In this document: one piece after another, positions 27,159 to 55,792 of the stretch
Layout of the letters: each line of letters begins with the position of its first letter
Position numbering within the stretch: the stretch's first letter is position 1
The notes under the pieces: model-generated
What the model was told of the DNA's origin: nothing
The model's input: the letters and a program-made list of their open reading frames with translations, nothing else
Database searches by the model: none
NCBI GenBank assembly: GCA_934086315.1
Contig: CAKOHZ010000002.1
Location: forward strand, 296,464-360,463
From: an uncultured Bacilli bacterium
GTDB lineage: Bacteria > Bacillota_I > Bacilli_A > RF39 > UBA660
Reading direction: 5' to 3'
Length of the DNA stretch: 64,000 bases
Program-made: the position numbers and the translations under genes

Positions 27159-27172
27159 ACATTCTCTTCTTT

Positions 27173-29406: not shown

Positions 29407-29408
29407 GA

Positions 29409-37257: not shown

Positions 37258-37347
37258 ACTAATTCCCTCTAGGTAATTATATCATTATTATTATATTTTT
37301 TCAACAACATAAAAAAAAGGACCAATGTCCTTATTTTACACTTGGCA

Positions 37348-39353: not shown

Positions 39354-39659
39354 TTATGGTGTAGTTGTTCCACCTGTAGTTGTTCCACCTTCAGAATCTT
39401 GACCATAGTCAGTATCATAGCATTTGCCATTAGCATCGCCATCTCTACAACATTTCCAAACCTTAACAGTTGCTTGAGTACCATCGTCAAAACTTCTTAC
39501 ACTAACAGCTTGAAAGTCAGTACCATAAGTTCTACAAGTTTGATTAACTATAGATTTTTGAATCATTGGCCAAACAAATGCATAGAACAAACCACCAACA
39601 GCCGCAATAGCTATGATAGTAATAACTGTCATGTTTAATTCACCTGAAGCTTCTTTCAT
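39354..39659 (-). CDS. small pilin-like protein, Cys-containing with Thr/Gly-rich C-terminus
   Basis: 101 aa. MKEASG-ELNMTVITIIAIAAVGGLFYAF. Strong RBS AAAGGAGG. C-terminal GGTTTGGTTTP. Confidence 0.45.
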   Translation of the reverse strand: MKEASGELNMTVITIIAIAAVGGLFYAFVWPMIQKSIVNQTCRTYGTDFQAVSVRSFDDGTQATVKVWKCCRDGDANGKCYDTDYGQDSEGGTTTGGTTTP

Positions 39660-39729: not shown

Positions 39730-40527
39730 CTAAACACTCACAAACATTTGGAATATTGCTAGTACTAGAATAACCATAACACCTGCACCTGTTGATGTAA
39801 GCATTGTAAATGTTTTCTTTTCCATTTTTTCAAGACGTTCTTTATATTTAGTTTCTCTTGACTTATTTTGCAAATTTGAAATAGTTTTAGAGAATGCCAA
39901 TAATTGTTCTTGTTTTCTCTCCTGACTACCTAAACCAAGTCTATATAGAAGTCTCATCATACGCATACTATCACGAACAGGATATCTTCGAGCAAATGCC
40001 ATATAAGGTTCAATACTAGAGTCACCTGCATCTATAGAAGCTATCAAATCACGAAGTCCTGGTTTGAACATTTCTGGAGCTGTTTCTAAACTACGCGTAA
40101 TAGCAACAGGAACAGTATAGTGTTGAATTAAAATTTCTAAACTCTTTAGATAATATGGTAATTTCAAGTTGATATCATGTAAATGAACTTTGTAATAACT
40201 TTTTACTTTACTATAATCATCCTTAAACATAAGATAAGCACCAGCAAAACATAATACCAACTTAACAGCAAAATTAAGACTTTGAATACTAGTAATTGAT
40301 AATATCAAAAGTATTAAAAATGTAATAATAGCATTTTTTACTCTTTTTTGATATCTAAGATTTACGTCAACCTTTTCACCATATTTAGATACTACCAAGA
40401 AATCATAGTCATCTTCTTTTAATTTTGCAAATAGTACTTTATTATCATCAACAAACTTATTAAAATTAAAAGTACCTAAATAGTTAAATAACAATATAAT
40501 AATTACTCCAACAGCAAATATTTCCAT
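39730..40527 (-). CDS. TadC-like inner-membrane platform protein (T2SS-F family)
   Basis: 265 aa. TM-cytoplasmic domain-TM topology. Paired with, and start overlapping, the downstream TadB-like gene. Confidence 0.5.
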   Translation of the reverse strand: MEIFAVGVIIILLFNYLGTFNFNKFVDDNKVLFAKLKEDDYDFLVVSKYGEKVDVNLRYQKRVKNAIITFLILLILSITSIQSLNFAVKLVLCFAGAYLMFKDDYSKVKSYYKVHLHDINLKLPYYLKSLEILIQHYTVPVAITRSLETAPEMFKPGLRDLIASIDAGDSSIEPYMAFARRYPVRDSMRMMRLLYRLGLGSQERKQEQLLAFSKTISNLQNKSRETKYKERLEKMEKKTFTMLTSTGAGVMVILVLAIFQMFVSV

Positions 40528-41426
40528 TATTCAGCACCTACATCCTCATGGTAGTATTTTATACCTGATAGTAAGAAGTATGTATTAATTAATATTACAC
40601 CATGAAGTAATATTTGAACATACCATTGCTCAAGCAATTGTGTATAACTAGAATCACCTAATAATAATTGTACTAATAAAACTAATAAATACAGAGCTAC
40701 ACCAAATGTACAGAATTGTTTATAGAATGTTGTTCTATCAATTCTATCACGATATACACTTTCTACAAGCATATCTATATCTTGAAGCATGCCTTCTAAA
40801 GCTTCACCAGAATCTTTAGAACCTTCTTTAGTGATTTGTAAGAACAATTGATGCATATTCTTAATTACATAATAATCATATTTTTCATTCATAAAACGAA
40901 TAGCTTCATCGATAGTACCATTTTCATAAGACATTTGTATCATTTCTTTGACATCGCTTAATAATGGTTCCTCTAGTACTTCAGAATCTCTAACGCCTTC
41001 TAATGCTTTAACAAATGATTGTGTAGTGTTAAATTCCATAATAACATTAGTTGTATATACTTGAATTTGTTCAAATATATACTCACTATATGCCTTTTTA
41101 CATCTCATATAAGTCAAATATGGAATTACCATTATAGCGGCTGCAGCATACACTATACTCCATATAATACTATAAAAGTACAAGAATGAGACAAATGCAG
41201 CACCAACACCAAATACTACAATTTGAATAACATACTGGCGAGTTGAATATTCTTGTCCTAATTCTTTTGCTTTCTCACGAACAACTTTAAAAGAATAAGG
41301 AGCATATTTTTCATAAGTATTTGCAATAGTCTTAGTAATAAATTTGTATGAATTGTCACCAGTATTTTTTCTATATATTAATACAAATATAACAATAATA
41401 GCAACAATAATTATCTCAAAATACAT
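40527..41426 (-). CDS. TadB-like inner-membrane platform protein (T2SS-F family)
   Basis: 299 aa. Three to four TM helices flanking a cytoplasmic helical domain. Adjacent to the CpaF-like ATPase. Confidence 0.5.
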   Translation of the reverse strand: MYFEIIIVAIIVIFVLIYRKNTGDNSYKFITKTIANTYEKYAPYSFKVVREKAKELGQEYSTRQYVIQIVVFGVGAAFVSFLYFYSIIWSIVYAAAAIMVIPYLTYMRCKKAYSEYIFEQIQVYTTNVIMEFNTTQSFVKALEGVRDSEVLEEPLLSDVKEMIQMSYENGTIDEAIRFMNEKYDYYVIKNMHQLFLQITKEGSKDSGEALEGMLQDIDMLVESVYRDRIDRTTFYKQFCTFGVALYLLVLLVQLLLGDSSYTQLLEQWYVQILLHGVILINTYFLLSGIKYYHEDVGAE

Positions 41427-41441
41427 ATAACACCTCCATTA

Positions 41442-42884
41442 CTAAATTTCTACCATTTCTATATTATTAGTAGTTTGATTAACTACTGGTTCTTCTACAA
41501 TTAAATGTTCTTCTTGTGGTTCATTAACTACAGGCTGCACCATAGCCCCTGCAGCAACAGGTTGAGCAGTAACAATTGGTTCACTAGCAACCGGTTCACT
41601 AACGACTGCAACTTCCGAAACAGTATTAGGACCAGGACTAATTTCCGATTCACTTGCTACCTCAGAACCTACATTAGCAACATTATTGTCAACAATTTCA
41701 GGTTCATCAGAAGTGTCTCCATTCTGAATATTATTAACCTTCGCACTCTCTACACCACTACCAACAGTAGAAGTACCTTCGGTACTTTCACTTTGCTCAC
41801 CACTTGCTTCTTGTAATTCACTGCCTTTAGGTATAAATGGATCTTCTTGCATCATAACACCTTGTGACGCTAAATAATCAATTAAATGAGAAGTTGGATT
41901 ATTATATACTTCATTTTCCATCAAATCACGAGCATACAATATATTAACTTTTGCTTCATTAGTTTCATCATCAACATAAAATTCAACAACTTGAGTAATT
42001 TCTCTTTGAAATCTATTATATTTTTTTGAAAAGAAACCTTTAACGTGTATACCTAACTGAATATATCTATGCATACCTTTAACAAATTGATCAATATCTT
42101 GACTACTTTCAAGTAGTGAGTAAAGACGCATTGGAATACTTGAAGCTTTATCAGAGTGTATTGTAGATAAGATATTATGTCCTGAAGAAATTGAGTTACG
42201 AACAGCAAGAACAGCTTCTGCAGAACGAACCTCTGATAGTAAAATCCATCTTGGGTTTTGACGCATACAGGCTACCAAAACATCTGAGTAAGAAGCAATA
42301 TTATTTGTTTTCATTGCTACTATATCACGAGTTGGATAAATTTTATCCAAGTGAAGTTCTAATGTATCTTCAATTGTTATTATTTTTTCATCCTCTTTAA
42401 TATGACTTGCTAAGTATTTAACAAGCTCTGTTTTACCTGAACCAGTTTCTCCACTTACAAGAATATTACAGTGACCACCAACACAAGTCATCAAAAAGTC
42501 ATGAAGTTTTAAAGAAACATAATCTTCTTTAACTAATTTATCTTTATTCAATCTTATTTTTGCTGGAGTTTTTCTTATTAGAACAGCAATTCCATTCGTT
42601 GCAATAGAATCATGTACAAAGTTAAGACGTAACTCAGCACTTTCGGCATCTAGTAATGGATGTGCCATATTAAATGTTTTACCCATAACGTTAGAACATT
42701 GGAAAGCAAGTTTTTCCATTACTTCATTATTTAATCCCTCAATATGAGCTGGTTTAACACCTTGTGTTAAAGTTTTAATCCACAGCTGACCATTATTAGA
42801 ATACGAAATATCGGTAATATCATCATCTTCTAAAAGAGGCATTAACAAACCAAAGTCTATTTGTGAAAATACAGCATCCTCCAT
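41442..42884 (-). CDS. CpaF/TadA-family secretion ATPase with ~130-aa acidic low-complexity C-terminal tail
   Basis: Walker A NILVSGETGSGKTE, Asp box IITIEDTLEL and Walker B-like RWILLSEVRS. The tail is rich in E/S/V/P (…VASESEISPGPNTVSEVAVVSEPVASEP…). Confidence 0.8.
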   Translation of the reverse strand: MEDAVFSQIDFGLLMPLLEDDDITDISYSNNGQLWIKTLTQGVKPAHIEGLNNEVMEKLAFQCSNVMGKTFNMAHPLLDAESAELRLNFVHDSIATNGIAVLIRKTPAKIRLNKDKLVKEDYVSLKLHDFLMTCVGGHCNILVSGETGSGKTELVKYLASHIKEDEKIITIEDTLELHLDKIYPTRDIVAMKTNNIASYSDVLVACMRQNPRWILLSEVRSAEAVLAVRNSISSGHNILSTIHSDKASSIPMRLYSLLESSQDIDQFVKGMHRYIQLGIHVKGFFSKKYNRFQREITQVVEFYVDDETNEAKVNILYARDLMENEVYNNPTSHLIDYLASQGVMMQEDPFIPKGSELQEASGEQSESTEGTSTVGSGVESAKVNNIQNGDTSDEPEIVDNNVANVGSEVASESEISPGPNTVSEVAVVSEPVASEPIVTAQPVAAGAMVQPVVNEPQEEHLIVEEPVVNQTTNNIEMVEI

Positions 42885-42905: not shown

Positions 42906-43760
42906 TTATTCAGTAATGTTTATATCTCCTCCATTACCATTGTTTCCATTATCGCCGTTATCACCATTGTCAGTAGAATCATCAACAAAATCTAATGGAA
43001 CTTCCCTTGTTTCTTTAAGTATTAAATTTGTTAAATACTCACTAGAAACTTTTGTACTTCCTGGATTATAATTAGCATTTCTAACAACTGGAACCAAACT
43101 ACCAGTTCCAGAAATAGCTATAGCTTTTCTTAATAACAAGTGTAAGTCTTCAGGAACAGCAAAAATTAACGCAGAAGCATCTTTTTGATTAGCTCCTTTC
43201 TTAAAAATATGTGACCCATCACTATCTTTAACAGCTAAAACTGTAATACCTTCAATTAATTTACCAAAAACAAGTTTTCCACCATCACTAGTCATATAAT
43301 ACAAATCAATTGCATCTCCAGGATAAATAGAGTTACCATATGTAGTATTTGTAGAAACACTTAGTGAGAAAATTGTATAATCTTTATAAATGTTATTCCA
43401 AGCTGAATCAGGCATAGAATCCCAAGTAACAATTTCAGAACTATAAAATAAACTACCAGCAGGAATTATTGTATTATAATTAACATATTTTCCAACAACA
43501 TTCTTTTTATCACGAACAACAGTTGAAGTAACTAAAGAAGAAGCTACTTTAACAACACCTACATCTTCTTCTTTAATTTCCTTACGAGCACTTAAGTCTA
43601 TTAAAGCATACGGAACTTCAATTGCATTAATTGCTTTATTTACACGATAATTATAAGCAAGAAACAATATTATTAAACATGCAACACCAGCAACAATAGT
43701 AACTAAGCCTTTATTGCCTAATAATTTTTTAATAGCATTATTCATCCTATTCACCTCCAT
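42906..43760 (-). CDS. CpaB/RcpC-like pilus assembly protein
   Basis: N-terminal TM then a SAF-like segment (IEVPYALIDLSARKEIKEEDVGVVKVASSLV). C-terminal Gly/Asn/Asp-rich tail. Confidence 0.55.
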   Translation of the reverse strand: MEVNRMNNAIKKLLGNKGLVTIVAGVACLIILFLAYNYRVNKAINAIEVPYALIDLSARKEIKEEDVGVVKVASSLVTSTVVRDKKNVVGKYVNYNTIIPAGSLFYSSEIVTWDSMPDSAWNNIYKDYTIFSLSVSTNTTYGNSIYPGDAIDLYYMTSDGGKLVFGKLIEGITVLAVKDSDGSHIFKKGANQKDASALIFAVPEDLHLLLRKAIAISGTGSLVPVVRNANYNPGSTKVSSEYLTNLILKETREVPLDFVDDSTDNGDNGDNGNNGNGGDINITE

Positions 43761-44595
43761 TTACAACATTATTTGTATTTGAATCTACTTCAGAATTAGG
43801 ATTATCTATCTCAATATTTTTTAAATCTTCATTATCAACATTAACAGTTTTTGATAAAATTAACTCTTTTAAATAAGTACTACTAATTCTTGTATCTTTA
43901 GGATTATTAGAATAATCAGCATTACGAGGTACCGGAAAAATAGTACCGGATGTATACAATGCTTTTCTTAACAATAAGTGCATATCTTCAGGAATAGAGA
44001 AAATCAAATATCTAGGTTTTTCAGTAACACCACTTTTTTCAAATATATTATTATAATTACTATCAGTAACTGCTAAAACTCTAATACTTTCAATAAATTT
44101 TCCTATTAAAAGTTTCCCATCATTATCGTATCCTTGATAATATAAATCAATATAGTTATCAGTAAAAATTGAATTACCATATGTTGTTTCTATAGTAACA
44201 GGTAAAGCTACAATTGTATTACCATCAGCAATATTTTCATAAATACTTGATGGAAGCTCATCCCAAGTTAACAAAGTATTGTTATAAAACATACTATCAG
44301 CAGGAATTTCTACTTTATTACTAACATACATACCAATTATTCTGCTAGATTCAGTAATAACATTAGCAGTAATAACTTTTCCTGGAACTTTTCTAGTACC
44401 AACCATTTCAGAAGTTATTAAAGTTCTTGGTAACAATGTTTTAATAGCATATGGAACCATTCTAGGTTCAGTTGCTTTTTCAATTCTCCACCAATAAGCC
44501 CAATAAATTATAAGTAAACAAACAATTACTGCAAATATAGTTACAGTATTTTTATTTTTAAAAAATCTTTTAACCCCTATTAATACACTATTCAT
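43747..44595 (-). CDS. CpaB/RcpC-like pilus assembly protein, paralog
   Basis: Same architecture as the adjacent gene (…RMVPYAIKTLLPRTLITSEMVGTRKVPGKVI…). Confidence 0.55.
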   Translation of the reverse strand: MNSVLIGVKRFFKNKNTVTIFAVIVCLLIIYWAYWWRIEKATEPRMVPYAIKTLLPRTLITSEMVGTRKVPGKVITANVITESSRIIGMYVSNKVEIPADSMFYNNTLLTWDELPSSIYENIADGNTIVALPVTIETTYGNSIFTDNYIDLYYQGYDNDGKLLIGKFIESIRVLAVTDSNYNNIFEKSGVTEKPRYLIFSIPEDMHLLLRKALYTSGTIFPVPRNADYSNNPKDTRISSTYLKELILSKTVNVDNEDLKNIEIDNPNSEVDSNTNNVVNGGE

Positions 44596-44692: not shown

Positions 44693-45847
44693 TTAATTTC
44701 TTGTATACTTAAATCTAAGTTTCCATTTAATACCAGTATACATAAAGCATCTAACAGTTCCACCATTTTCTGCGGTTTTTGATTTAACTAAATTTCCATT
44801 TGCAGAAGATCTATTTCTATATTCTGCATTATATCTTAATTTAATTTGAATAGATGCTCTTTCACTATTAGTAGATGTATCATATGTTGTATAAAGATTA
44901 CAAGTGACTCCAATATTACTCACTTCACTCGCAGTAGCAAAGTAATTGAAGTTTTCTTCTACTGGAACAGTTCCACCATTATCTCCAATTAAATATTGTT
45001 GGAATTTTTGTTTCATAGTTTTATAATTTCTAACATCATTAATACTTTCAAATACTTTAGCAGAACTAGCAATAACTTCACAACTCTTAATTCTTCCTGC
45101 AATAATGTCTTCGTTCATTCCATTAGGTAATGACTTGTATGACATTAGGAATGACATATTTCCAGTAGTAGAACTATTATTGCAAGAGCCAGTTTCACTA
45201 TTATAAGCACTTGGGTTTTGTAAATATGCAATAGAATAGAAATCTAATACATTTGAAGTTAATAAGTTACTGTCATCAGGAGTTGGATTTACAGTATTTC
45301 CTCCACCGCCATTATCTCCTCCACCATCAGGAATATTTGGAGTTGGTGTAACATTTCTAGAACTACCATCAGGACATGCAACAGTAATAGTACTGCTTCC
45401 ACCTCCATTTCCATCTTCATCAGAATCTCCATCTGCTTGGCTATATATAGTTTCCAATATACCATTTACTAATGTATCCAAGTTAACATCAAAAGATGTT
45501 TCTTTAATATTAGCGGTATTTCCAGAACTAGTTCTTACACGAACACTAGCTTTAGGTGGTTCTTCATATATATCATAAAATTCTAGTTTATAAGTTTTAT
45601 TATTAGTAACACTTTCTGAAAATCTTCTAATGAAAACCTCAACAAATTTTTGTTCTGACATTACAAGTCTACCAGTTGTTCTATATGTACCATAGTCAAC
45701 TGCATCTATCATAGAAGATTCTAAAACCTCACGTGCTAAATAGAAATCTTCTTCAGAAGTTGTAGTCATTCTTTGAATTAAAAGCAAGATGACTACAATT
45801 ACAACTCCACAAAGTACTACAAAATATCCCCAAAATGAATGTTTCAT
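44693..45847 (-). CDS. pilin-like N-terminus protein with Gly/Ser/Asn-rich central region
   Basis: 384 aa. MKHSFWG-YFVVLCGVVIVVILLLI at the N-terminus. Central DGNGGGSS...GGGDNGGGGNT low-complexity segment. Confidence 0.5.
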   Translation of the reverse strand: MKHSFWGYFVVLCGVVIVVILLLIQRMTTTSEEDFYLAREVLESSMIDAVDYGTYRTTGRLVMSEQKFVEVFIRRFSESVTNNKTYKLEFYDIYEEPPKASVRVRTSSGNTANIKETSFDVNLDTLVNGILETIYSQADGDSDEDGNGGGSSTITVACPDGSSRNVTPTPNIPDGGGDNGGGGNTVNPTPDDSNLLTSNVLDFYSIAYLQNPSAYNSETGSCNNSSTTGNMSFLMSYKSLPNGMNEDIIAGRIKSCEVIASSAKVFESINDVRNYKTMKQKFQQYLIGDNGGTVPVEENFNYFATASEVSNIGVTCNLYTTYDTSTNSERASIQIKLRYNAEYRNRSSANGNLVKSKTAENGGTVRCFMYTGIKWKLRFKYTRN

Positions 45848-45862: not shown

Positions 45863-48800
45863 CTATGGATTTGAAAATTTAACAGTTTCAACATCATAAC
45901 TATTATTAGGTTGAGAAATTTCTTCTAAGAATGATGATTTACATTTATAGAAACCATTTAATCCACTTGGATCATTAACTAATTGACAAGATAAATAACT
46001 ATTGTCTTGGTAACCAACACCCATTAATTCTTGTTGAGTATTGTATTCTCTAATTCTACTAATTGCAGTTGGTGTAAGAATGAAACTATATTTTAAATTA
46101 CTTTCATCAGCAAACATATCGTCGCCCTTTTGTTCTATTTGTGTTTTTACATTTTCACCTAATGTTGTTGCCCAGTTTGTACCAATAGGCCTATTATTTT
46201 TTGTTGTATTAGAATCGTTTTGATCAGATGTAACTGAATTTGGGAAAACATTAGTTAAATCAATATTTCTATATACAAAACCATATCCTTTAGATTCATT
46301 ATCTTTTAACTCAAACTCATTACATTCTTTAGTAATAACCGGAACACCAGCAACTAATTTATAACAACTATTTTTACAAGCACTTAAATCCAATTTTCCA
46401 TTAGATGTTCTAGTAGCACAATCATATAAATTTGTTGTGTTGTAAACATCATATGAACATGTATAATCTAATGACACGTTATCATCAACAACAATTTTAA
46501 CATTATCGATATGTTGTTTTACAGTATAATTGCCTGTCTTACCTCCAGTATTTAATCCATTACTTACAGGATATTCTTCATTTCCTAATGGAGTCGTTAA
46601 ACCATTTCTACCTGCTTCTCCAACTTCACCAGTATAAGCACCAGCAGAGAATTTATCGCTACGCCAGAAATCAGTTTCAGTAACTACAACAAATGACGCG
46701 TAATCATTAGTAGGCAAAGATATTTTCTTTTTCTTACATTGAACGCTATTTAAAGTACCCTCACATTCAATTAAATCATGATCTTTCAAAGAATTACCTT
46801 TATCAAGTTCAACCTCTTGACCTTTCACATATTTATAACAATCAGGATTTCTATCATCATTATTTTTACAAAAATAAGTTTTGTTTAATTTTTCAGATGG
46901 CAATGTTTTTGTTTCTTTTTCAATTGTGACATTTTTGCCATATAACTCATCTTCATATTCTACTTTTAATTCTGCACAATCATTATTACTATCACTGCAT
47001 ACAGCTTTATCAAGTAAAATATTTTTTGCAGAACCTTTAGCACTTTTATTAATGCTTGCTGCTATAGTTCCATGATGTTCAGTACTAACATTTTGATAAA
47101 CATCTTCAATCTTTGGGGCAGTATCACCTGTTGCAACATACATATTACAATTTTGCAGATCATATATTAACTGAGCAACAGCATCCAATGCAGATTTATA
47201 TAGTTTATAATATTTATCTTCATCATCTGATGCTTTAGCAGGATCTCCTGGATCTCCTCTATTACAACTTCCGCTAGTACCATAACCATCATCATGCCCA
47301 CAACAAGAAGTTCCATTCTCACCACAAGAATAATCATGATTACAAGTGGTAGGATAACAAGAACTACTTTCATTTTCAACACCTGAATCTGTACTATAAG
47401 AGCCATTACTACATCTTATGTTAAAATTAACTCCCTTTTCAGAACCTGATTCAACCCAACAATACTTATATGGTATGCTTGAACCCTTAGTTGGCCAATA
47501 TAAATGCCATTGAATTGGTGGTAAATATTCACCAACTGAGCAATCTCCTGGACATCCAGTACCAGAATAACATTGTTTTCCTTCAATCAAAACTTGATGT
47601 GGTCCACCATTATTTTCTTCCCAGCTTAATGCTGATTCATATTTCTTCCATTCTACATAAGCATCCATCATTTTCTTCACAGCAGCATCATACTGTTGTA
47701 ACCAAGTATTCTTATTACCATATTTATTTTTAGTATCATAATAAATTTCTGAAGTACATTGTTGTTTTTGAAGAACTATACTAGTCAATGCAACATCAGT
47801 TCTTACAATTTCAGTAACATCTTCCTCACAAGCAAGAACGGATGGACCAATATCATATCTAAATTGCATTCCAGCATAAACTTTCTTTTTGTTTGCTAAA
47901 TAGAACACAACTTCTTTACGACAATACAAATCACAAACATTTTTATTAAGACCTACTTCTTCAGTTTTTCTAAATTGTAACTTATCTGAATCTTTACATG
48001 GATGTAAAATACAGTTCATATATGGATCTGATTTATCAAAACTATCATAACCATCGTAATTATTTCCACAAGTTGCTTGACCTAAATCTCCAGATAAAGT
48101 TTTAGATACTGGATTAAAGTCAGTACATTTTGTATCATCATTGCAAGGACAATCAGAGTACACAGATTTTTCAAACTTTTTATCTGTAGATGAATTTGGA
48201 CCACTTTCTTCCCTTTGTGACTTATTAAAAACAGCAGTATACATTATTTGATATAAACTAGGATTAATACAATGTCTATATTCTCTTATTAATCCAACTG
48301 AATTATATCCTTTTAATGTAACTTCAAAAATATACTTTTTCATTGAACTCTCAGATGTTTCAGTAGTACTACAAGTCATACTACCGCCAACTTCAAGTTC
48401 GCATTTTTCTTTACTACATGTACCACCTACAAGAGATAAATCTCCTTGTGGAACCTTAACTTTATTACCATTAGCATCTGTATAAAATACTTGAACATAC
48501 ATTCTACATCTAGAATCCTTCTTTAATAATTGATCTAAAGTACATTCAACCTCATATGTTTTAGTGGTTGTTTCTCTCTCATATTGTTCTATAAAAGATG
48601 TAGGCCATTTAGCTACCATACTAGCCCCACCATTATCTTTTTTTGAAGCCTCTATTTGAAATTTATCATCATTAGTGCCAAGTAAACCATCAAGAAATTT
48701 TTCACTACTATTACCATTAAACATATCTAATGCTTTGTTAAATAAAGGAATAGCAGCAATATAATTATTATTGCCAGACAAATTACCACAAAGCACACCT

Positions 48801-49804
48801 AGATTAGAATCGCTCTTAGCTTGCCAACATTCTTGTCCAGTATAACCACCAGCAGCAGCTTTAGCTGTACTTAAATAAACTTTAGTAGTTGAAAAATAAT
48901 CAAACTCTTGCTCAAATCCAACACCATCAACACCACTAATTGGATTACCTTTTACATTACCATAATATGAAGTCCACATTCTTAGAGCTGTAGTAACAGC
49001 ACCAAAGCCATATTCAGCATCATTACTAGTAAAAATTGTGTTACCATTACTATCAGTTGAAGGTATCATAGTATAATATAATATTTGTGCAAGACCACAA
49101 TAATAATGATTTTGTAACTTGTCATCACAATCTTTTAAATTCATTTCTTTATTTAAACAATAAGTTTCACCAGCAGCGCTAGGGCCTTTTTTACCTGGTT
49201 GTATACAATATGCACGATCACTACCATTTAATAAATATTCCCAAACAACAGAATCTTTTAATTTATCATTAAAACTTCCACTAACATTAGGATTACCTCT
49301 AACGCCTATTTTATAAACAGTTCTAAGTTCATCTGTAGCACAATAATTATTACAACTGCTTTGACAATAACTATTACATTCACCAGAACTATTATAACTT
49401 GTACCAGTAATATCACATTTATAATGGCCACGATAATCATATGTACAAGTTCCAGTAGCTATATGTTGTCTACACTCATCAGGAAGCATATCGCTAGCAC
49501 CATCTAAAGTACATTTATTTCTTACTGTTTGCATAGAATAAACACAAGCGTTAGGATCACTGCTACCAGTTGCTTTCCTACAAGCTTCTTGAGCAGCTTC
49601 TAAACCTGTATATGTTTTAGTATCCATAACAAAATCATCTTTTACTGTAGTATACTCTGCACCAGAAGCACTAACCCAATGCTGTCCAATCTTAGCTGTT
49701 GCTCCTGATGCACTAATTGTTACCCTATCATTTATACTTTCGGCATTTACATAACCAAAGCACAATAGTAAAGAAATAATTAATAAACTAAGCTTCTTCT
49801 TCAT
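45863..49804 (-). CDS. giant secreted cysteine-rich protein (1313 aa)
   Basis: Sec signal MKKKLSLLIISLLLCFGYVNA. Cys clusters throughout (e.g. SGECNSYCQSSCNNYC, SCYPTTCNHDYSCGENGTSCCGHDDGYG). Contains an RGD tripeptide. No C-terminal anchor. Confidence 0.65.
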   Translation of the reverse strand: MKKKLSLLIISLLLCFGYVNAESINDRVTISASGATAKIGQHWVSASGAEYTTVKDDFVMDTKTYTGLEAAQEACRKATGSSDPNACVYSMQTVRNKCTLDGASDMLPDECRQHIATGTCTYDYRGHYKCDITGTSYNSSGECNSYCQSSCNNYCATDELRTVYKIGVRGNPNVSGSFNDKLKDSVVWEYLLNGSDRAYCIQPGKKGPSAAGETYCLNKEMNLKDCDDKLQNHYYCGLAQILYYTMIPSTDSNGNTIFTSNDAEYGFGAVTTALRMWTSYYGNVKGNPISGVDGVGFEQEFDYFSTTKVYLSTAKAAAGGYTGQECWQAKSDSNLGVLCGNLSGNNNYIAAIPLFNKALDMFNGNSSEKFLDGLLGTNDDKFQIEASKKDNGGASMVAKWPTSFIEQYERETTTKTYEVECTLDQLLKKDSRCRMYVQVFYTDANGNKVKVPQGDLSLVGGTCSKEKCELEVGGSMTCSTTETSESSMKKYIFEVTLKGYNSVGLIREYRHCINPSLYQIMYTAVFNKSQREESGPNSSTDKKFEKSVYSDCPCNDDTKCTDFNPVSKTLSGDLGQATCGNNYDGYDSFDKSDPYMNCILHPCKDSDKLQFRKTEEVGLNKNVCDLYCRKEVVFYLANKKKVYAGMQFRYDIGPSVLACEEDVTEIVRTDVALTSIVLQKQQCTSEIYYDTKNKYGNKNTWLQQYDAAVKKMMDAYVEWKKYESALSWEENNGGPHQVLIEGKQCYSGTGCPGDCSVGEYLPPIQWHLYWPTKGSSIPYKYCWVESGSEKGVNFNIRCSNGSYSTDSGVENESSSCYPTTCNHDYSCGENGTSCCGHDDGYGTSGSCNRGDPGDPAKASDDEDKYYKLYKSALDAVAQLIYDLQNCNMYVATGDTAPKIEDVYQNVSTEHHGTIAASINKSAKGSAKNILLDKAVCSDSNNDCAELKVEYEDELYGKNVTIEKETKTLPSEKLNKTYFCKNNDDRNPDCYKYVKGQEVELDKGNSLKDHDLIECEGTLNSVQCKKKKISLPTNDYASFVVVTETDFWRSDKFSAGAYTGEVGEAGRNGLTTPLGNEEYPVSNGLNTGGKTGNYTVKQHIDNVKIVVDDNVSLDYTCSYDVYNTTNLYDCATRTSNGKLDLSACKNSCYKLVAGVPVITKECNEFELKDNESKGYGFVYRNIDLTNVFPNSVTSDQNDSNTTKNNRPIGTNWATTLGENVKTQIEQKGDDMFADESNLKYSFILTPTAISRIREYNTQQELMGVGYQDNSYLSCQLVNDPSGLNGFYKCKSSFLEEISQPNNSYDVETVKFSNP

Positions 49805-50490
49805 TATTCTTTACTTCCTTTCTTTTTGTAAATAAATATAATAACAATATAAAATAAAGATATAACAACAACTGGAATGACTACAAAATACCAATACGAT
49901 TTAATAAAATTCCAAACCTTTTGAAAAAAATTAAGCTTAGGAGTAACATCTGGATTGATAATTTCACCAAAATCATCGTGATTTAATTCAGAAGAATCAT
50001 AGTCAATTGAACAAATATCTTCATTTAAGTGCGCTTGACAATATTCAGTATCTCTATAAGTGTTATAAGCATTTACCTTATGAGAGAATTCTTTTATCTT
50101 TTCATTTGGACACTTAGATTTATCTCCACCATAAACTGTTATATTATAAGTTTTTGGTTCAAAATGAATATATGAACCTATCACATATGAATCAAAGAAG
50201 TCATCATAATAACCACTGTATTTCTCATTGCTCTCGCTATCAGTAACTTCTACTTTAACTTTATCTTTCATACCTCTTAAGGTATCACCAAAGCTTAATA
50301 AATAAAAATATTTTCTTTCACGTTCAACTTTATTATCTTTTCCTACTATCTCAAGATCTTCGACCAAAAATACATCCAATTTTTCAGCTAAATTATTTAA
50401 TTCATAATCATTGCATAAAGCGAATAATTTAGGTTGAAAAATCAAAGTAAATAATAGTACTAAAAGTAAAAGATTTATTTTCTTTTTCAT
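49804..50490 (-). CDS. secreted protein with C-terminal TM anchor and basic tail
   Basis: Signal peptide. C-terminal YWYFVVIPVVVISLFYIVIIFIYKKKGSKE. Start overlaps the stop of the giant gene. Confidence 0.55.
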   Translation of the reverse strand: MKKKINLLLLVLLFTLIFQPKLFALCNDYELNNLAEKLDVFLVEDLEIVGKDNKVERERKYFYLLSFGDTLRGMKDKVKVEVTDSESNEKYSGYYDDFFDSYVIGSYIHFEPKTYNITVYGGDKSKCPNEKIKEFSHKVNAYNTYRDTEYCQAHLNEDICSIDYDSSELNHDDFGEIINPDVTPKLNFFQKVWNFIKSYWYFVVIPVVVISLFYIVIIFIYKKKGSKE

Positions 50491-50547: not shown

Positions 50548-51204
50548 CTAAATTCCATGTTTAACTTTTCTTAGTTTACCATTAAAAATAAGGATTGTTA
50601 CACTACTAGAAATAACAACTAATAATATTTGAATTCCCCACCTGACAGTAAAATCTTTAATGTCGTCAAGTATTGTCCTATTAATATCTGGATCTTCAGG
50701 CTCCTCAACTGGAATTGAATTATTATAGTTTTTTATCATACTATCAAGTAAATCTTCAGTTGGTTTATAATTCAAGAATTTAGAAGTACATATCGTAAGT
50801 TTATTTCTATATCCATTACATTTACTATTATCATAAATTGTATTATAGTATGGTAACGAAATTTGTATAGTTCTTAAGTTTGAATTACAAGTTGTTTCAT
50901 TTGTATTAACATAAATGTTAAGTGAATTTCCTTCACTTAAATTTTTAATAGTTACTTCAAAATTTTTTTCTTCAGATGAAGAAAAAACCTCACTATTATA
51001 ACTTAAATATAAACCCTTAATTATGTTATAAAATTTAATTGTATATTCTTTTTTATTTTTATTATACGAAGTTTCATATTCAATATTCATTGAAGCTTTT
51101 TGATACTGAACAAACAATGAATTATCACAACCACCAGTATTACTAGTCGCATTAACAGCAAACGGTATCATTAAAAGTAACGCTATTAAAATTTTCTTTT
51201 TCAT
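50548..51204 (-). CDS. secreted protein with C-terminal TM anchor and basic tail
   Basis: Signal peptide MKKKILIALLLMIPFAVNA. C-terminal ILLVVISSSVTILIFNGKLRKVKHGI. Confidence 0.55.
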   Translation of the reverse strand: MKKKILIALLLMIPFAVNATSNTGGCDNSLFVQYQKASMNIEYETSYNKNKKEYTIKFYNIIKGLYLSYNSEVFSSSEEKNFEVTIKNLSEGNSLNIYVNTNETTCNSNLRTIQISLPYYNTIYDNSKCNGYRNKLTICTSKFLNYKPTEDLLDSMIKNYNNSIPVEEPEDPDINRTILDDIKDFTVRWGIQILLVVISSSVTILIFNGKLRKVKHGI

Positions 51205-51220: not shown

Positions 51221-52873
51221 TTATTCTTTTATTAAAACTGCATGTACTACTAATCTTTTTTCACCATTTCCAGCACATGTAGATAATGTTAAAATTTTAT
51301 CTCCATACTCTATTTTATCATTTGTCTTAAAAGTACTTCTTCCTCTAATAAGTTTAACAAAACTATCAAATTCTTTTTTATTTTCAAAATCAGTTTTTAA
51401 ATAATCAGTAGTGTAATTAACTCTATACCCAGCAAATATTTTAAATTTGTATTCTCCATTAGGAGTATCATAGCTAATAATCATATTCTCACTATTCTTT
51501 CTAAAACTTGAAGTAAGAACATATCTTAATGTACCAAACATTGTACCATTAAGCATACTATGGCCATATATAATATTATTTGAACTAAAGTTAACACTAT
51601 CATTTCTATAATCCATATATAACCAACCCATAGAACTTTTTCTTTTATAGAAATCTCTAGATAGATAATAACTATTATCAGAATGTTGAACTACTGGATA
51701 ATTAATTTCAGTACCATTAATTGTTAAAAATCCAACTGTTTCTTTATTAATCTTTTTTAGTTTAGAAAACACCTTCTCAAAATTATATCTACTATTTGTT
51801 TTATTTTCATTATTTGAAGTATTTGTATTACTATTAGAACTATTATTACTGTTATCAATATCTTCATCATTATTTTCACTATTGTTATTATTTTTATCAT
51901 TAAATCTATCTAATTCGAAATTATTATCAGCTGCGTAACTACCATTATTAATAGCATTATTTAACTCATCAATACTCATCTTTTCAACATATTCATACGA
52001 CTTAACAATAATCAAACTAACTAAGCTTACATAAACGCATAATAGAGATATAAGTTTTAAATTGTTAAATGTTAATTGTTTAAACAAATTATTAAACAAG
52101 AATGTATTAGAATATACGATTCTAAACTCACAAGTATATTCATCTTTACATTTCTTGTTTAATTCTTTTAACCAAGCAAAATTTTTAGTAATAAAGTTAT
52201 CCTCATCATAGCTTTGATGCAAGAACACAATTATATTCCTAGATTCGTCTTTTTTTACTAAATCAATAATTGAACCTATTAGTTCCTTTGAAAACACATA
52301 TATATGTATAGATTTAAGATTATAATTAATTCTTAAAAATTCTTTTAAATCTAAAAGTAACGTACTATAGTTTTCTCTAATTTCTATATTCTTTTTATAA
52401 TATAATGTTTCATAATCAAAAGCATCCTGAAGTAACATAAATCTATCAGATACCTTCTCTTTATTATATAGATTTACTTCAACTCCATTAATTTTAAACT
52501 TATCAATAATGAATTTAGGCATATAATAACAATCTATTTTCTTTAGTGAATTTACTCCTAAAAACATTTCATAATCTGCAAGACCTATTGTAGAAGGAAA
52601 ATCTAATCTTAAATAACTTATATTTAATTCATCTAAAATATATATACTATATTTAAAAGTAATTAATCTTTTTATTGTAAGTATATCTATATTATTATTC
52701 TTTAAAAGTTCTATTACTTTAGAATAATTTTTTCTATAATATTTAAGTGTTAAAAATAATGAAGCATTATAAAACTCTAAACTATTAACATGTTTACTCT
52801 CTTCATCATTAATAGTTCTAAAGTCAAAGAATAAAGTTTTATCTCTAATTGTCAAAACAATATATTCTTTCAT
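51221..52873 (-). CDS. sortase class-B-like catalytic domain fused to an N-terminal ~270-aa cytoplasmic domain via a TM helix and an Asn/Ser-rich linker
   Basis: The C-domain (GFLTINGTEINYPVVQHSDNSYYL…IIYGHSM…ILTLSTCAGNG…RLVVHA) matches the SrtB motifs (INYPVVQ, YGH, LxTC, conserved Arg). TM LISLLCVYVSLVSLIIV around residues 270-290. The N-domain is unassigned. Confidence 0.65.
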   Translation of the reverse strand: MKEYIVLTIRDKTLFFDFRTINDEESKHVNSLEFYNASLFLTLKYYRKNYSKVIELLKNNNIDILTIKRLITFKYSIYILDELNISYLRLDFPSTIGLADYEMFLGVNSLKKIDCYYMPKFIIDKFKINGVEVNLYNKEKVSDRFMLLQDAFDYETLYYKKNIEIRENYSTLLLDLKEFLRINYNLKSIHIYVFSKELIGSIIDLVKKDESRNIIVFLHQSYDEDNFITKNFAWLKELNKKCKDEYTCEFRIVYSNTFLFNNLFKQLTFNNLKLISLLCVYVSLVSLIIVKSYEYVEKMSIDELNNAINNGSYAADNNFELDRFNDKNNNNSENNDEDIDNSNNSSNSNTNTSNNENKTNSRYNFEKVFSKLKKINKETVGFLTINGTEINYPVVQHSDNSYYLSRDFYKRKSSMGWLYMDYRNDSVNFSSNNIIYGHSMLNGTMFGTLRYVLTSSFRKNSENMIISYDTPNGEYKFKIFAGYRVNYTTDYLKTDFENKKEFDSFVKLIRGRSTFKTNDKIEYGDKILTLSTCAGNGEKRLVVHAVLIKE

Positions 52874-52933: not shown

Positions 52934-53473
52934 CTATTCAATTCCATATTTTTCAATCATTTTCTCAAGTACTTTATAATTAATATATTTAAGCTCACTA
53001 CTCATAGCTTCTTGAGCTTCTCCATCTTTAATATATATAAGTAATGGAGCATTAGTAATTTGATCTTTAATATTAGGATATTTTTCTTTTAATGTAACTA
53101 AATAATCAGTATTATCTCCATAATCAGCTACATTCCAATATATAAAATCATCTAATAAATCTTTCTTTTCTAAAACACTATACATTTTTTTCTCGTTACT
53201 ATATATTTCGTCATTACCAGTATAACTTACATATAAAAGTACATCTCCTGTTTCAGTTAAAGCAAAATCAGCATCTTTTGAATTAATTTGTTTTACTTTT
53301 TGATCTAAGAATACACTAGTATTTAATTTATTATTTTTATAAGTTAAATAGAAAGTTCTTAAATATAACGAAAGTATTATAACTAATATAGACACAACCA
53401 ATACAATAAAATAATTACGAGTTGGTATCTTTTTATCAAATATTTCAAATTTCTTCTTTAATAATTTCTTCAT
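52934..53473 (-). CDS. membrane-anchored hypothetical protein, Cys-free; first gene of the cluster
   Basis: N-terminal TM YFIVLVVSILVIILSLYL. RBS GGAGGA. Confidence 0.5.
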   Translation of the reverse strand: MKKLLKKKFEIFDKKIPTRNYFIVLVVSILVIILSLYLRTFYLTYKNNKLNTSVFLDQKVKQINSKDADFALTETGDVLLYVSYTGNDEIYSNEKKMYSVLEKKDLLDDFIYWNVADYGDNTDYLVTLKEKYPNIKDQITNAPLLIYIKDGEAQEAMSSELKYINYKVLEKMIEKYGIE

Positions 53474-53590: not shown

Positions 53591-54157
53591 ATGCATGAAA
53601 TTTTTAATAAAGAGTTAAGTTATATAAAAGATGAAAAAATTAAGAATAGTTTAAAAACTATGTTAGATTTATTACCAGAGTATTTTTATGAAATTCCTGC
53701 TAGCTCTACTGGCAAATATCATCCTGAATTTACTTTAGGTAATGGTGGTCTTGTGAGACATACAAAAGCAGCTGTGAGAATTGCTTATGAGTTACTTCAA
53801 AATCCAGCTATTAATAATTTTACCGAAGAAGAAAAGGATTTATTATTATTTGCTCTAACTGTTCATGATGGATTAAAAAATGGAAAAATTAAAGGACGTT
53901 ATACAGCAACTGATCATCCTATACAAATGAGTAATTATGTTAAGGAAAATAAAGACAAATTAGAACTTAACGATTCTCAAATTGATTTAATCTGTAGATG
54001 TATTGCTACTCATATGGGACCATGGACTACAGATTTTAATGGAAATGAAGTACTAGAACCACCAAAAGATAAATATCAAAGATTTGTTCATATGTGTGAT
54101 TATCTAGCAAGTAGAAAATTCTTAAATATAAAATTTGAAAATAACGAAATAATTTAA
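53591..54157 (+). CDS. HD-domain phosphohydrolase
   Basis: His…HD motif (VRHTKAAVRIA … LTVHDGLKNG). 188 aa. Confidence 0.65.
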   Translation: MHEIFNKELSYIKDEKIKNSLKTMLDLLPEYFYEIPASSTGKYHPEFTLGNGGLVRHTKAAVRIAYELLQNPAINNFTEEEKDLLLFALTVHDGLKNGKIKGRYTATDHPIQMSNYVKENKDKLELNDSQIDLICRCIATHMGPWTTDFNGNEVLEPPKDKYQRFVHMCDYLASRKFLNIKFENNEII

Positions 54158-54190
54158 AACTGAAGAAATAAATCTTCAGTTTTATTTTGT
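54155..54190. terminator. bidirectional terminator
   Basis: aaactgaaga-aataaa-tcttcagttt hairpin flanked by A and T runs. Lies between convergent genes. Confidence 0.55.
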
Positions 54191-55792
54191 TATAAATTTT
54201 AATGTACTAGGTATTCCAGTAACAGTAGAATCACTAAATTTAGAAACAGTTTCTTCATCTTTAACATATCCACTAGTAGCAGAAACATTTTTAAACATTT
54301 CGTCCATATTAGTCACATTAGAAATATCAAATGAGCTTAAATCTAAAAAGTTAGATTTATTTCCAAAAAACATACGATACATAGTTGTAACATTTAAAGT
54401 ATCAAAATTAGTTAAGTTTAAATTAATTGCTCTAGAATAATTGAACATATTACTCATATCAGTTACATTACTAGTATCAAAAGAATCAAGACCAACAACT
54501 TCAGTAGCACGAGAACTTTGAAACATACCACCCATATTAGTAACTTTACTTGTATTAAAATTACTTAAATCCAAGTATTTCATATTCGAGCCTTGAAACA
54601 TTGAACCCATATTAGTTGAATTAGAAGTATCAAAATTATTTAAATCAATATATTCAAGATTAGTTCCCCAAAACATAGAATTAAAACTAGTAACACTAGA
54701 TGTATCAAAACTGCTTAAATCAATATATTTTACCAGTGTATTATAAAAAAATGCCCCCATACCAGTAACATTCCTAGTGTTAAAACTAGAAACATCTATA
54801 TAAGTTGCTTTACTAGAAAAGAAATAACACAAAAACGAAGTTATATTTGAAGTATCGAAACTACTAAGATCTAATGACAAAAAGTTACTATTTCTAAACA
54901 TATGTTGCATTTCAGTAACTTTAGAAGTATCAAACGATTCTAAACCATCAATTGTAGTTGCCTTAGCATTCATAAACATCGCATACATACTAGTAACATT
55001 TTTTGTATTAATATTACCAAGATCAATACTTACAGCTTCACTATCTCTAAAAGCATTATAAAAAGAAACAATTGGTCTATCATTTATATAAGTACATAAA
55101 ACTGTATTTACAGGATCTGTACTTGTTTTATCTGTTAAGGAAACACTCCAACCATTATTACCAGCAGAAGTATATGTATATTGTCCACTCACATATTCTT
55201 TTTCATTATCAGAATAACAATATATAGAATTATCTAAATATTCTTCCAACTCTATCCTGCCACTAAATTTTTTTCCAATGTTCTCATCTTGTGGATAATT
55301 TCTATTTAAAAAAGTTATTGTTAATTCATATACGTGTGTTACACCAATATCTATTTCCACATCTCTTTTAATATCTTTATTTATCTTATCTTCAGTGTAT
55401 GGAATAGCTTTATAAAAACTCTTACATTCACCATATTCTTCTTGAGTGTCTGTACCATAGTTTTTATAACTCTTACATTTCATATCTAAATGTAAATCAA
55501 AATAATTAATTTGGTTTATTAAATCTTTCCAAACGATATTATAACTTACGTTTTTAGTACCAATATTTTCAACTATTAAAGTTTTTGAAATAGAATCTCC
55601 TGGTAATGCATTTTCCATACTCAAAGTAGAAACATCAGTATATTTAAGCTTTAATTCTTCAGTACTTAAAACTATATTTTTAGAATTATTTTTAATTTCC
55701 ATACTAAAATAGGCATAAGAAAAAGTTATTACTCCAAAGACAAGCGTAATAACAAATATAATAATCATAGTTCTAACTACCCTACTATTCAT
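54182..55792 (-). CDS. BspA-type (DUF285) leucine-rich-repeat surface protein with SipW-cognate-type signal peptide
   Basis: More than ten repeats of the L(D/S)LS.FDTSNVT.M..MF unit. N-terminal MIIIFVITLVFGVITFSYAYFSMEI resembles the SipW-cognate AYFSD-class signal. Confidence 0.7.
   Translation of the reverse strand: MNSRVVRTMIIIFVITLVFGVITFSYAYFSMEIKNNSKNIVLSTEELKLKYTDVSTLSMENALPGDSISKTLIVENIGTKNVSYNIVWKDLINQINYFDLHLDMKCKSYKNYGTDTQEEYGECKSFYKAIPYTEDKINKDIKRDVEIDIGVTHVYELTITFLNRNYPQDENIGKKFSGRIELEEYLDNSIYCYSDNEKEYVSGQYTYTSAGNNGWSVSLTDKTSTDPVNTVLCTYINDRPIVSFYNAFRDSEAVSIDLGNINTKNVTSMYAMFMNAKATTIDGLESFDTSKVTEMQHMFRNSNFLSLDLSSFDTSNITSFLCYFFSSKATYIDVSSFNTRNVTGMGAFFYNTLVKYIDLSSFDTSSVTSFNSMFWGTNLEYIDLNNFDTSNSTNMGSMFQGSNMKYLDLSNFNTSKVTNMGGMFQSSRATEVVGLDSFDTSNVTDMSNMFNYSRAINLNLTNFDTLNVTTMYRMFFGNKSNFLDLSSFDISNVTNMDEMFKNVSATSGYVKDEETVSKFSDSTVTGIPSTLKFITK

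Follow-up and report, generated by a model that had tools for sequence, protein, structure and literature searches.

The 1313-residue Cys-rich protein encoded at positions 45863-49804 (minus strand, stop codon included) of the 64,000-nucleotide stretch studied here is most aptly characterized as a Cys-rich variety of thioester-domain (TED) adhesin. Its central feature is a head that resembles Class II TEDs and carries a Cys200/Gln519 pair. The stretch, called the window throughout, is part of contig CAKOHZ010000002.1 from an uncultured Bacilli bacterium and has a G+C content of 21-31%. The protein probably belongs to a previously unnamed family of surface adhesins. To the complete proposal, in which it is exported by Sec, stabilized by disulfides, binds covalently and is displayed by a Tad-like apparatus encoded around it, we give a probability of roughly 0.55. 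That it is a surface adhesin functionally tied to its locus is highly probable. The following regions were distinguished in the protein.

49742-49804, minus strand: Sec signal peptide, residues 1-21 (MKKKLSLLIISLLLCFGYVNA), read from the sequence and kept in homologs
49250-49741, minus strand: N-terminal variable Cys-rich region, residues 22-185, with 10 Cys including the run of three CxxxC spacings; block identities 0.37-0.52, among the lowest in the protein
48155-49249, minus strand: Class II thioester-domain-like head and beta-sandwich, residues ~186-550
49199-49210, minus strand: Y199-C200-I201-Q202, candidate thioester-forming Cys motif (Cys200 codon 49205-49207)
48974-48991, minus strand: T272-A-L-R-M-W277, variant of the TQxx-hydrophobic-W helix motif
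48242-48253, minus strand: Y518-Q519-I-M, candidate thioester-forming Gln (Gln519 codon 48248-48250)
47705-48154, minus strand: central region, residues 551-700, the most conserved (DPYMNCILNPC ... VYAGMQFRYDIGP ... LTSIVLQKQQCTSEIYYD); block identities 0.70-0.77
47240-47572, minus strand: hypervariable Cys-rich insert, residues 745-855, with 11 Cys and the tripeptide Arg-Gly-Asp (RGD); many indels, variable Cys number, block identities 0.37-0.41
45866-46957, minus strand: conserved C-terminal region, residues 950-1313, with the motifs PxNDYAxF, YPVS, YRNVDLxNLFP, NW, IREYN and CKSxFL

Thioester-domain-like head

Residues 22-746 were modelled with AlphaFold2 from a 15-sequence alignment, and the model was reasonably confident over residues ~60-550. 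In a Foldseek comparison with 350,542 PDB chains, three matches reached E ≤ 1e-3 (6fwy_A, 6fwv_A and 6fwv_B). All three are chains of two Class II TED structures and were aligned over ~380 columns. The other fold matches listed were mostly Ig-like domains. On this model, the head is predicted to have a TED-like fold, which comprises a beta-barrel and a lobe of three helices together with an inserted seven-stranded beta-sandwich. An adhesin had already been suspected in a preliminary description of the window, and the TED and Ig-like beta-sandwich matches support that character.

The only universally conserved residues of TEDs are the Cys and the Gln that form the bond (PMC6194298). The Cys lies in a [YFL]C-hydrophobic-hydrophilic motif, and the Gln lies on a late strand in a weak motif of the form hydrophobic-Q-hydrophilic-hydrophobic-hydrophobic (PMC6194298). 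The TQxx-hydrophobic-W motif is dispensable, and its Gln is not needed for bond formation (PMC6194298). In the family of the window protein, Cys200 was present in 131 of 137 sequences. Position 201 was V, I or L in 133 sequences and position 202 was N or Q in 112, giving the family motif [YF]C[VIL][NQ]P. The sequence Y199-C200-I-Q fits the TED Cys motif, and Cys200 is located at the end of a strand in the AlphaFold2 model. Gln519 was present in 128 of 135 sequences and is the sole Gln among the 45 columns conserved at ≥88%. It was also missing in 5 of the 6 sequences that lack Cys200, compared with 5 of the 131 that have it (Fisher P = 4e-6). The sequences without the pair are related most closely to members that carry both residues, in three groups or more, which suggests that the pair was lost repeatedly; the signal is possibly inflated by alignment error in the most divergent sequences and by shared ancestry.

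The head was compared with the Tie protein of the conjugative Bacillus subtilis plasmid pLS20, using an alignment of its TED region with seven plasmid relatives. Only one protein was obtained when the word index was searched with the Tie TED. In hhalign, the family profile (residues 175-560) matched the Tie family with E 1.4e-5 and a score of 45.6; 30 column-shuffled controls scored 11.9 ± 2.0 (maximum 17.7) and the reversed alignment 9.8. The sequence AYCIQPGKKGP was placed on VYCIDPDKPAP, which makes Cys200 the counterpart of Tie Cys68. This residue is essential by experiment, and the C68S mutant of Tie is non-functional (PMC8092201). TALRMW was placed on TYVALNNW of Tie, which likewise has no Gln in the motif. 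Gln519 (NPSLYQIM) was placed on Tie Gln256 (NTSSYQRL) in three of three sub-region trials (P 0.02-0.17). Judged from these alignments, the N-lobe is homologous to pLS20 Tie. Relative to Tie, Cys226 and Cys236 lie inside an insertion and could plausibly form a pair of their own, so that Cys200 would remain available for the thioester. We consider a genuine thioester between Cys200 and Gln519 fairly probable.

Export, Cys content and protein family

The signal peptide, with its cleavage site between MKKKLSLLIISLLLCFGYVNA and ES, is the sole hydrophobic 19-mer of the protein and has no canonical lipobox. The 1313 residues were also inspected for a sortase motif of the LPxTG/NPxTG type and for a C-terminal hydrophobic segment, and neither was found. 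With a single hydrophobic segment and no sorting motif, the protein was confirmed as secreted, anchorless and equipped with a Sec signal, as the preliminary description had stated. It contains 58 Cys (4.42%), compared with 0.99% Cys in the other 54 open reading frames (ORFs) of the window (binomial P = 1.9e-20), and 57 Cys remain in the mature form. The exceptional Cys richness noted earlier was therefore borne out, and all three of the spacings quoted with it could be located: CxxxC in C143-x3-C147-x3-C151-x3-C155, CC at 834-835 and CxC at 552-554.

Neither internal repeats nor a Cys periodicity was detected by self-BLAST or by an all-versus-all profile comparison of eight segments with hhalign. 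The protein is thus not built of repeated Cys-rich modules, as had been proposed, and the EGF-like folds proposed along with them were absent from the fold matches listed. This bears on an explanation in which the protein is an integrin-directed adhesin of repeated Cys-rich EGF-like modules that binds through its RGD. The tripeptide (residues 849-851, window 47252-47260) is part of the segment CNRGDPGDP (residues 847-855) in an exposed-looking loop rich in Gly, Ser and Asp, and relatives of the protein come from gut metagenomes, both of which would suit such an adhesin. However, 0.16 RGD tripeptides are expected by chance from the composition of the protein, the motif lies within the hypervariable insert, and it was found in none of 14 homologs, including one with 71% identity. 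The missing repeats and EGF-like matches also speak against this explanation, which is effectively refuted by the non-conservation of RGD, and the tripeptide is taken as a chance match.

A word-indexed search of 5.8 billion proteins returned 15 clusters. No Pfam domain was present in any of them, and the only source name recorded was "hypothetical protein", on one weak relative, so that no defined enzymatic annotation was attached to the homologs. When the search was repeated with a diverse alignment, one extra weak match was obtained. Across the 15 homologs (35-100% identity), 46 Cys columns were invariant; the Cys content is therefore conserved among orthologs. A near-identical protein (P0001) was present on two metagenome contigs. 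A genome scan yielded 15 loci, all in metagenome-assembled genomes (MAGs) labelled Bacilli, Mollicutes, Mycoplasmatota or "Clostridium sp." (e.g. CAG:1000) and originating from human gut and rumen. An exhaustive HMMER search with a profile of residues 185-1313 gave 245 cluster representatives at E ≤ 1e-3, of which 177 reached E ≤ 1e-10 and 79 reached E ≤ 1e-30. The representatives were taken at 50% identity, and the family thus comprises at least 245 clusters. Full-length members mostly have 950-1700 residues and roughly 3-5% Cys, and the great majority have an N terminus that resembles a signal peptide.

Scans of the window protein against Pfam, NCBIfam and PHROGs gave no match, and profile searches of PDB by sequence gave no real match even at E ≤ 10. 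When 17 and 36 members were scanned against Pfam, the only match was Flg_new (Listeria-Bacteroides surface repeats), in 3 of the 36. Within the protein, conservation was lowest in the N-terminal region and the insert and highest in the centre and C terminus. The AlphaFold2 model was unreliable over the central region (residues 551-700). In residues 703-923, a long helix, a beta unit, the hypervariable insert and another helix were predicted at fair confidence. The insert is rich in Cys, Gly and Ser and in indels.

In a 138-sequence alignment, 16 Cys were near-universal (200, 226, 236, 478, 552, 554, 579, 624, 628, 683, 886, 979, 989, 1116, 1273 and 1288). Less universal Cys were gained or lost as local pairs (326-339, 1014-1023, 421-433 and 816-821), and this co-occurrence suggests disulfide loops. 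We infer that many short-range loops of this kind brace a non-repetitive body of ~750 residues. Exported proteins of Firmicutes are normally Cys-poor (Daniels et al. 2010, PMC2823432). The family is an exception to this cysteine exclusion and stands out regardless of what its Cys residues do. Other secreted proteins of the window are Cys-poor, e.g. that at 20017-22173 with 5 Cys in 718 residues.

Gene locus and Tad-like apparatus

The gene is located inside a tightly packed string of genes, which is flanked by terminator-like hairpins at 54155-54184 and 37317-37332 (the latter on the minus strand). The start codon of the Cys-rich gene and the stop codon of the s228 gene overlap. The other genes of the string are the following.

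52934-53473, minus strand: PedC-like/DUF6568 membrane protein without CxxC
51221-52873, minus strand: class B sortase fused to a 330-residue N-terminal domain
50548-51204, minus strand: s218, a 218-residue type I membrane protein with 4 conserved Cys
49804-50490, minus strand: s228, a 228-residue type I membrane protein with 4 conserved Cys
44693-45847, minus strand: DUF5411 protein, 384 residues (Pfam E 1.8e-48)
42906-44595, minus strand: two CpaB/RcpC-like bitopic proteins, 282 and 284 residues, with weak Pfam/TIGR03177 matches below the curated cut-offs
41442-42884, minus strand: TadA/CpaF/VirB11-type secretion ATPase, 480 residues (PF00437, E 4.6e-28)
39730-41426, minus strand: two polytopic membrane proteins, mem299 and mem265 (299 and 265 residues), in the TadB/TadC position
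39354-39659 and 38763-39257, minus strand: two small (pilin-like) proteins with an N-terminal transmembrane segment, 101 and 164 residues, 4 Cys each
37792-38736, minus strand: 314-residue protein
37348-37713, minus strand: 121-residue protein with two transmembrane segments and a weak T4SS_pilin match, at the operon end

Among NCBIfam families, the ATPase matched VirB11, TadA, TrbB and FlaI. It scored 104.6 bits with TIGR03819 (TadA family) and 115.6 bits with TIGR02788 (VirB11), both below the equivalog cut-offs. The DUF5411 protein consists of an N-terminal transmembrane helix, a conserved 133-residue domain and a variable C-terminal domain. Neither mem299 nor mem265 had a Pfam match, T2SSF included. 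The whole gene arrangement recurred in 15 of 15 genome loci. In four distant members of the family, the DUF5411 gene again follows the Cys-rich gene, and then RcpC-like, T2SSE and two membrane-protein genes where the contig allows. The function shared with a Tad-like operon that the preliminary description had argued for is supported by this strict synteny.

No conjugation genes were found among the Pfam-scanned ORFs, which comprised the whole locus and 10 ORFs outside it. The chromosomal neighbours scanned were GerA, teichoic-acid enzymes (TagF-like), LCP and PcrA/UvrD; LtaS, an 864-residue protein and an HD protein recur as chromosomal neighbours across species. No shufflon-type or other meaningful DNA repeats were detected around the gene, where only chance-level matches in AT-rich DNA were seen, and a promoter scan gave no informative signal at a G+C content of 26%.

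Divergence from the conserved machinery

Identities to the window proteins were measured in the same genome pairs. They amounted to 80-98% for the ATPase, 78-98% for the two polytopic membrane proteins and 69-97% for the 314-residue protein. The Cys-rich protein had 26-63% identity, s218 37-60% and s228 28-74%. In the DUF5411 protein, the N-terminal domain was conserved and the C terminus variable. The unit of s228, Cys-rich protein and DUF5411 was tandemly duplicated in four genomes (locus L010, 6804-16209; L011, 6249-15960; L014, 8937-19262; L015, 7335-17730), and the two copies were highly diverged. In L014 and L015 the adhesin copies were shorter (1063-1076 residues). A fast-evolving cassette next to conserved machinery, together with a variable N terminus and insert, is the pattern of an exposed specificity determinant on a conserved machine.

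These data were also used to judge whether the protein, instead of being an adhesin, could be a structural component of the machine, for example a wall-spanning conduit, stator or cap that the monoderm Tad-like system would need instead of a secretin complex and that is made rigid by disulfides. In favour of such a part, the protein was present in all loci examined, including the four distant members; its central and C-terminal regions are well conserved, and without an anchor it must be held by protein-protein contacts. However, it is 26-63% identical where the machinery is 78-98% identical, and its cassette is duplicated while the machinery is single-copy. The hypervariable insert, the surface-protein repeats of some members and the match of the head to adhesin domains also disagree with a machine part, which we regard as improbable.

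Comparison with the pLS20 module

In pLS20 (NC_015148), two small genes and then genes 36, 37, 38, 39 and 40 come after tie (gene 34). The 126-residue product of gene 36 matched DUF5411 (Pfam E 1.4e-5; hhalign to the DUF5411 protein of the window, 2e-3). Gene 37 encodes a TadA/VirB11-type ATPase with 31% identity to the ATPase of the window (E 5e-40). Genes 38 and 39 encode membrane proteins of 267 and 245 residues, and gene 40 a 120-residue protein with an N-terminal transmembrane segment and a weak DUF4320 match. In a 6 x 7 hhalign matrix, the best matches were collinear and paired mem265 with the product of gene 39 (E 2.6e-5 over 158 columns), the 164-residue pilin-like protein with that of gene 40 (2e-3) and mem299 with those of genes 38 and 39 (~1e-2). 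The same gene order as in the pLS20 module (locus L019, 6477-12971) was found on a Paraclostridium plasmid (L023, 7845-14663). From the collinear order and the matches, the window locus is a relative of the module formed by pLS20 genes 34-40, enlarged and located on the chromosome. Gene 37 has been regarded as a VirB11 homolog, and genes 36 and 38-41 were listed as "unknown" (PMC8557374). By sequence comparison, genes 36, 38, 39 and 40 look like a Tad-like module.

TIEpLS20 (Gago-Cordoba et al. 2021, PMC8092201) and the window protein share a Sec signal, an N-terminal Class II-type TED and the motif YCI(D/Q)P, and both have no LPxTG, lipobox or known wall-binding module. Both genes lie upstream of genes for a DUF5411-like protein, a TadA/VirB11-type ATPase, two membrane proteins and small transmembrane proteins. 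Tie differs in its length of 767-778 residues, its single Cys and its MucBP/Cna-like stalk domains, whereas the window protein has 1313 residues and, in its mature form, 57 Cys. It also contains a hypervariable insert, and its C-terminal region is unrelated, no homology to the C terminus of Tie being detected by hhalign. Tie is encoded in a conjugation operon with VirD4, VirB4 and relaxase, whereas the window locus is chromosomal among housekeeping genes. Compared with pLS20, the locus has in addition the two CpaB-like proteins, the sortase B fusion, the PedC-like protein and the two type I membrane proteins. The pLS20 authors asked by what means Tie, which has no anchor, is retained on the cell (PMC8092201). 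The shared synteny suggests that Tie is displayed by the adjacent ATPase module.

Comparison with other adhesins

The tip adhesins of type IV pili of the PilY1/PilC type are Sec-exported, anchorless non-pilins of ~1000-1200 residues that are encoded beside minor-pilin-like genes and presumably sit at the tip of the filament. The window protein is alike in size class, Sec export, lack of an anchor and location in a filament-type locus. No sequence or fold similarity to PilY1 was detected; the C-terminal beta-propeller was not seen, in a region where the model is unreliable. Display on a filament tip is put forward tentatively here, at somewhat less than even odds.

The Class II thioester-isopeptide-ester (TIE) surface proteins BaTIE, EfmTIE86 and SaTIE (6FWV, 6FWY and 6FX6; Miller et al. 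2018, PMC6194298) are anchored through LPxTG and have CnaB-type stalks with isopeptide or ester bonds. They are recognized by Pfam TED/TED_2, whereas the window family is not and is Cys-rich instead; no Cna or other stalk domain was found in the Pfam scans of the window protein and its family. Cpa (Spy0125; PDB 2XI9) contains a Class I TED and is an adhesin at the tip of the sortase pilus of Streptococcus pyogenes, to which a sortase links it covalently, whereas the machinery of the window is of the type IV/Tad ATPase kind. Operons with CpaF, PilC and DUF5411 in Roseburia, Ruminococcus and Eubacterium were predicted to be secretion or pilus operons of gut Firmicutes (Miller et al. 2022, PMC9523054). 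Compared by their description, they resemble the window locus in combining a CpaF-type ATPase and DUF5411 with a surface/invasion-type protein. They differ in that this is a partial internalin-B-like protein, no TED or Cys-rich protein being reported (PMC9523054).

Evidence against the proposed reading

Several observations speak against a disulfide-braced thioester adhesin on a filament. The AlphaFold2 model has moderate confidence (mean predicted local distance difference test score 59.7 with the 15-sequence alignment), and the C-terminal 60% of the protein is without a fold assignment. Pfam TED (PF08341) and TED_2 (PF20610) did not match the window protein at E ≤ 0.1 or the 17 and 36 family members at E ≤ 0.01; pLS20 Tie matches both. 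In TALRMW, the Thr, the hydrophobic position and the Trp are kept and the Gln is replaced by a near-invariant Ala (126 of 138). Cys200 and Gln519 are 319 residues apart, compared with ~170-205 in solved Class II TEDs, and the spacing in the family is ~115-150 residues longer than in Class II TIE proteins. Taken alone, the match of the Gln region to Tie does not reach significance. Few Cys occur in known TED adhesins (one in the 767 residues of Tie), so Cys200 is maybe one more disulfide partner.

The missing Pfam match, the Ala in place of Gln, the unusual spacing and the non-significant Gln-region alignment would all suit a TED-derived adhesin without a thioester. Its fold would be kept, Cys200 would either take part in a structural disulfide (e.g. 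to Cys226 or Cys236) or remain unpaired as a free thiol, and targets would be bound non-covalently, with the Tad-like surface display and the diversification as in the thioester adhesin. With 57 mature Cys, a structural Cys200 is even the default expectation. However, the loss of the sole conserved Gln together with Cys200 in several lineages is not predicted for a purely structural disulfide Cys. Cys226 and Cys236, only 10 residues apart in their insertion, can plausibly pair mutually, and the Gln of the TQxx-hydrophobic-W motif is both unneeded (PMC6194298) and missing from pLS20 Tie. An adhesin of this type is, in our view, rather unlikely.

The disulfides proposed for the thioester adhesin meet difficulties of their own. 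No candidate for a thioredoxin-like oxidase with CxxC was found within the window. The PedC-like/DUF6568 protein (named "PedC-like", PF20207, in another Pfam release) is membrane-anchored and thioredoxin-like by eye. It was tried as a disulfide oxidase and rejected, since 12 of 12 orthologs had no Cys outside the N-terminal transmembrane/leader segment. With no thiol oxidase in the window and no CxxC in the PedC-like protein, disulfide formation is left unexplained. The parity of the mature Cys count is mixed (~6 homologs odd and 9 even, counted manually) and thereby uninformative as a test for one free Cys.

The lack of a visible disulfide-forming enzyme in the window would agree with a metal-binding or redox protein, in which Cys clusters bind Zn or Fe, or serve as a thiol buffer or extracellular electron conduit, without any disulfides. 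Similarity to metal-binding sequences is seen in the run of three CxxxC at 143-155 and in the Cys-, Gly- and His-rich part of the insert at 816-847. The gut and rumen, from whose metagenomes the relatives come, are generally taken as a reducing habitat. However, the clustered Cys are the least conserved (C147 in 27 of 58 and C151 in 19 of 45 sequences with a residue there), and the insert varies in length and Cys number. The universal Cys occur singly or as i/i+10 pairs across domains rich in beta structure, an arrangement that disulfide loops show. We consider a metal-binding or redox role very improbable.

As to the filament, the Flp-type prepilin motif (G/xxxxEY) was absent from the small proteins starting MKEASGELNMTVITII... 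and MKDAMGGTWLTGLVII..., and no ORF of the locus matched an A24/TadV prepilin peptidase. Neither a canonical Flp pilin nor a prepilin peptidase was thus recognized in the locus, which makes the filament a postulate.

Proposed mechanism

In the mechanism that we infer for the thioester bond, the disulfides, the docking to a filament and the nature of the target, the protein would first be exported by Sec, the signal peptide and the lack of an anchor being the observed part. The head would fold as a Class II-type TED, in which Cys200 (YCIQ) and Gln519 (YQIM) form an internal thioester. In the body of ~750 residues, disulfide loops would replace the isopeptide and ester cross-links of the classical TIE stalks. 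The conserved C-terminal region would dock on the DUF5411 protein, the small pilin-like proteins or both. An ATPase-driven apparatus, composed of DUF5411, the two CpaB-like proteins, the TadA/VirB11-type ATPase, the two polytopic membrane proteins and the small pilin-like proteins, would hold the adhesin or extend it through the wall, for display at or beyond the cell wall. The thioester would then react with an amine on the surface of a host or partner cell, resulting in covalent attachment. The adhesin and two or three companion genes together make up a cassette that diversifies fast and is duplicated in some genomes, which fits a specificity determinant.

In a wider proposal, the locus and pLS20 genes 34-40 would encode a third type of Gram-positive adhesive appendage, distinct from sortase pili: a filament or pseudopilus driven by a Tad/VirB11 ATPase, with a covalently binding thioester adhesin at the tip. 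As it stands, we regard this proposal as doubtful.

Further observations on the locus and the window

The sortase B domain comprises residues ~332-547 of its protein (TIGR03064, 169.9 bits, above the cut-off). It is fused through a transmembrane segment and an Asn/Ser-rich linker to an N-terminal domain without family match, and the fusion is kept in all related loci. The neighbouring proteins that were examined carried no sorting signal, and no conserved motif precedes the transmembrane helices of s218 and s228. Both of the latter proteins have fast-evolving ectodomains with four strictly conserved Cys each. The cytoplasmic tail of s218 is almost invariant, RK(I/V/T/M)(K/R)H(G/K)I, pointing to an interaction with a conserved partner in the cytoplasm. 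Even Cys numbers were observed in the exported small components: 4 each in the 101-, 164- and 121-residue proteins and 6 in DUF5411. The whole apparatus, beyond the adhesin alone, seems to rely on Cys.

The ATPase has a low-complexity C-terminal extension of ~130 residues (residues ~350-480), in which Glu, Ser, Val and Pro abound. Among the complete ORFs of related loci, the ATPase ORF measured 391 to 485 residues from stop to stop. Three distant loci (P0124, L026 and L028) were rearranged, with the sortase after DUF5411, a second gene of ~1400 residues before the adhesin, or inserted transposon-like AAA-ATPase/PDDEXK genes. The adjacency of adhesin and DUF5411 was always kept. A transglutaminase-core protein was encoded upstream of the small genes in two distant loci, and L028 also had a sortase gene further upstream. 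The 864-residue protein (56026-58620, minus strand) was found at the upstream edge of most related loci that reach that far, with 49-92% identity. It has no visible signal peptide and had no match in Pfam, NCBIfam or PHROGs.

Elsewhere in the window, a GerA-type spore germination gene was located in 2194-5758 (plus strand; Pfam E 5e-131), followed by two ORFs that are GerAC- and GerAB-like by eye. On account of this gene the organism is probably a spore former, though some MAG records give its relatives the label Mollicutes or Mycoplasmatota. The region 20017-23831 (plus strand) encodes a 718-residue protein with SH3_3, cadherin-like and dockerin domains, and a 549-residue cadherin-like/BatD protein is also among the nearby surface proteins. 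A DUF285 ("Mycoplasma" repeat) protein is encoded at 54182-55792 (minus strand), and the product of 63059-63877 (minus strand) is DUF285-like by eye. The only other ORF of the window with more than 4% Cys (30156-30464, minus strand; 102 residues, 4.9% Cys) begins with MREECKNCGMC and adjoins the ORFs at 25839-30146, which are SUF-like by eye. Judged by eye, its product looks like a cytoplasmic metal-sensing repressor and is unrelated to the finding reported here.

Implications

The layout shared by the window locus and pLS20 gives a testable answer to the question of how Tie is retained. If the wider proposal is true, the plasmid module would be the functional counterpart of a conjugative pilus for mating-pair formation, which would explain the retention of Tie. 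Its chromosomal, rapidly diversifying version in uncultured low-GC gut Bacilli, braced by Cys in place of isopeptide bonds, would then provide covalent attachment to the surfaces of host or partner cells. The fast-evolving, sometimes duplicated cassette likely represents a host or partner specificity determinant in a poorly understood gut lineage. A probable thioester-type family of at least 245 clusters escapes Pfam, NCBIfam and PDB-sequence searches, and covalent-binding adhesins would therefore be commoner in uncultured gut Firmicutes than annotation shows.

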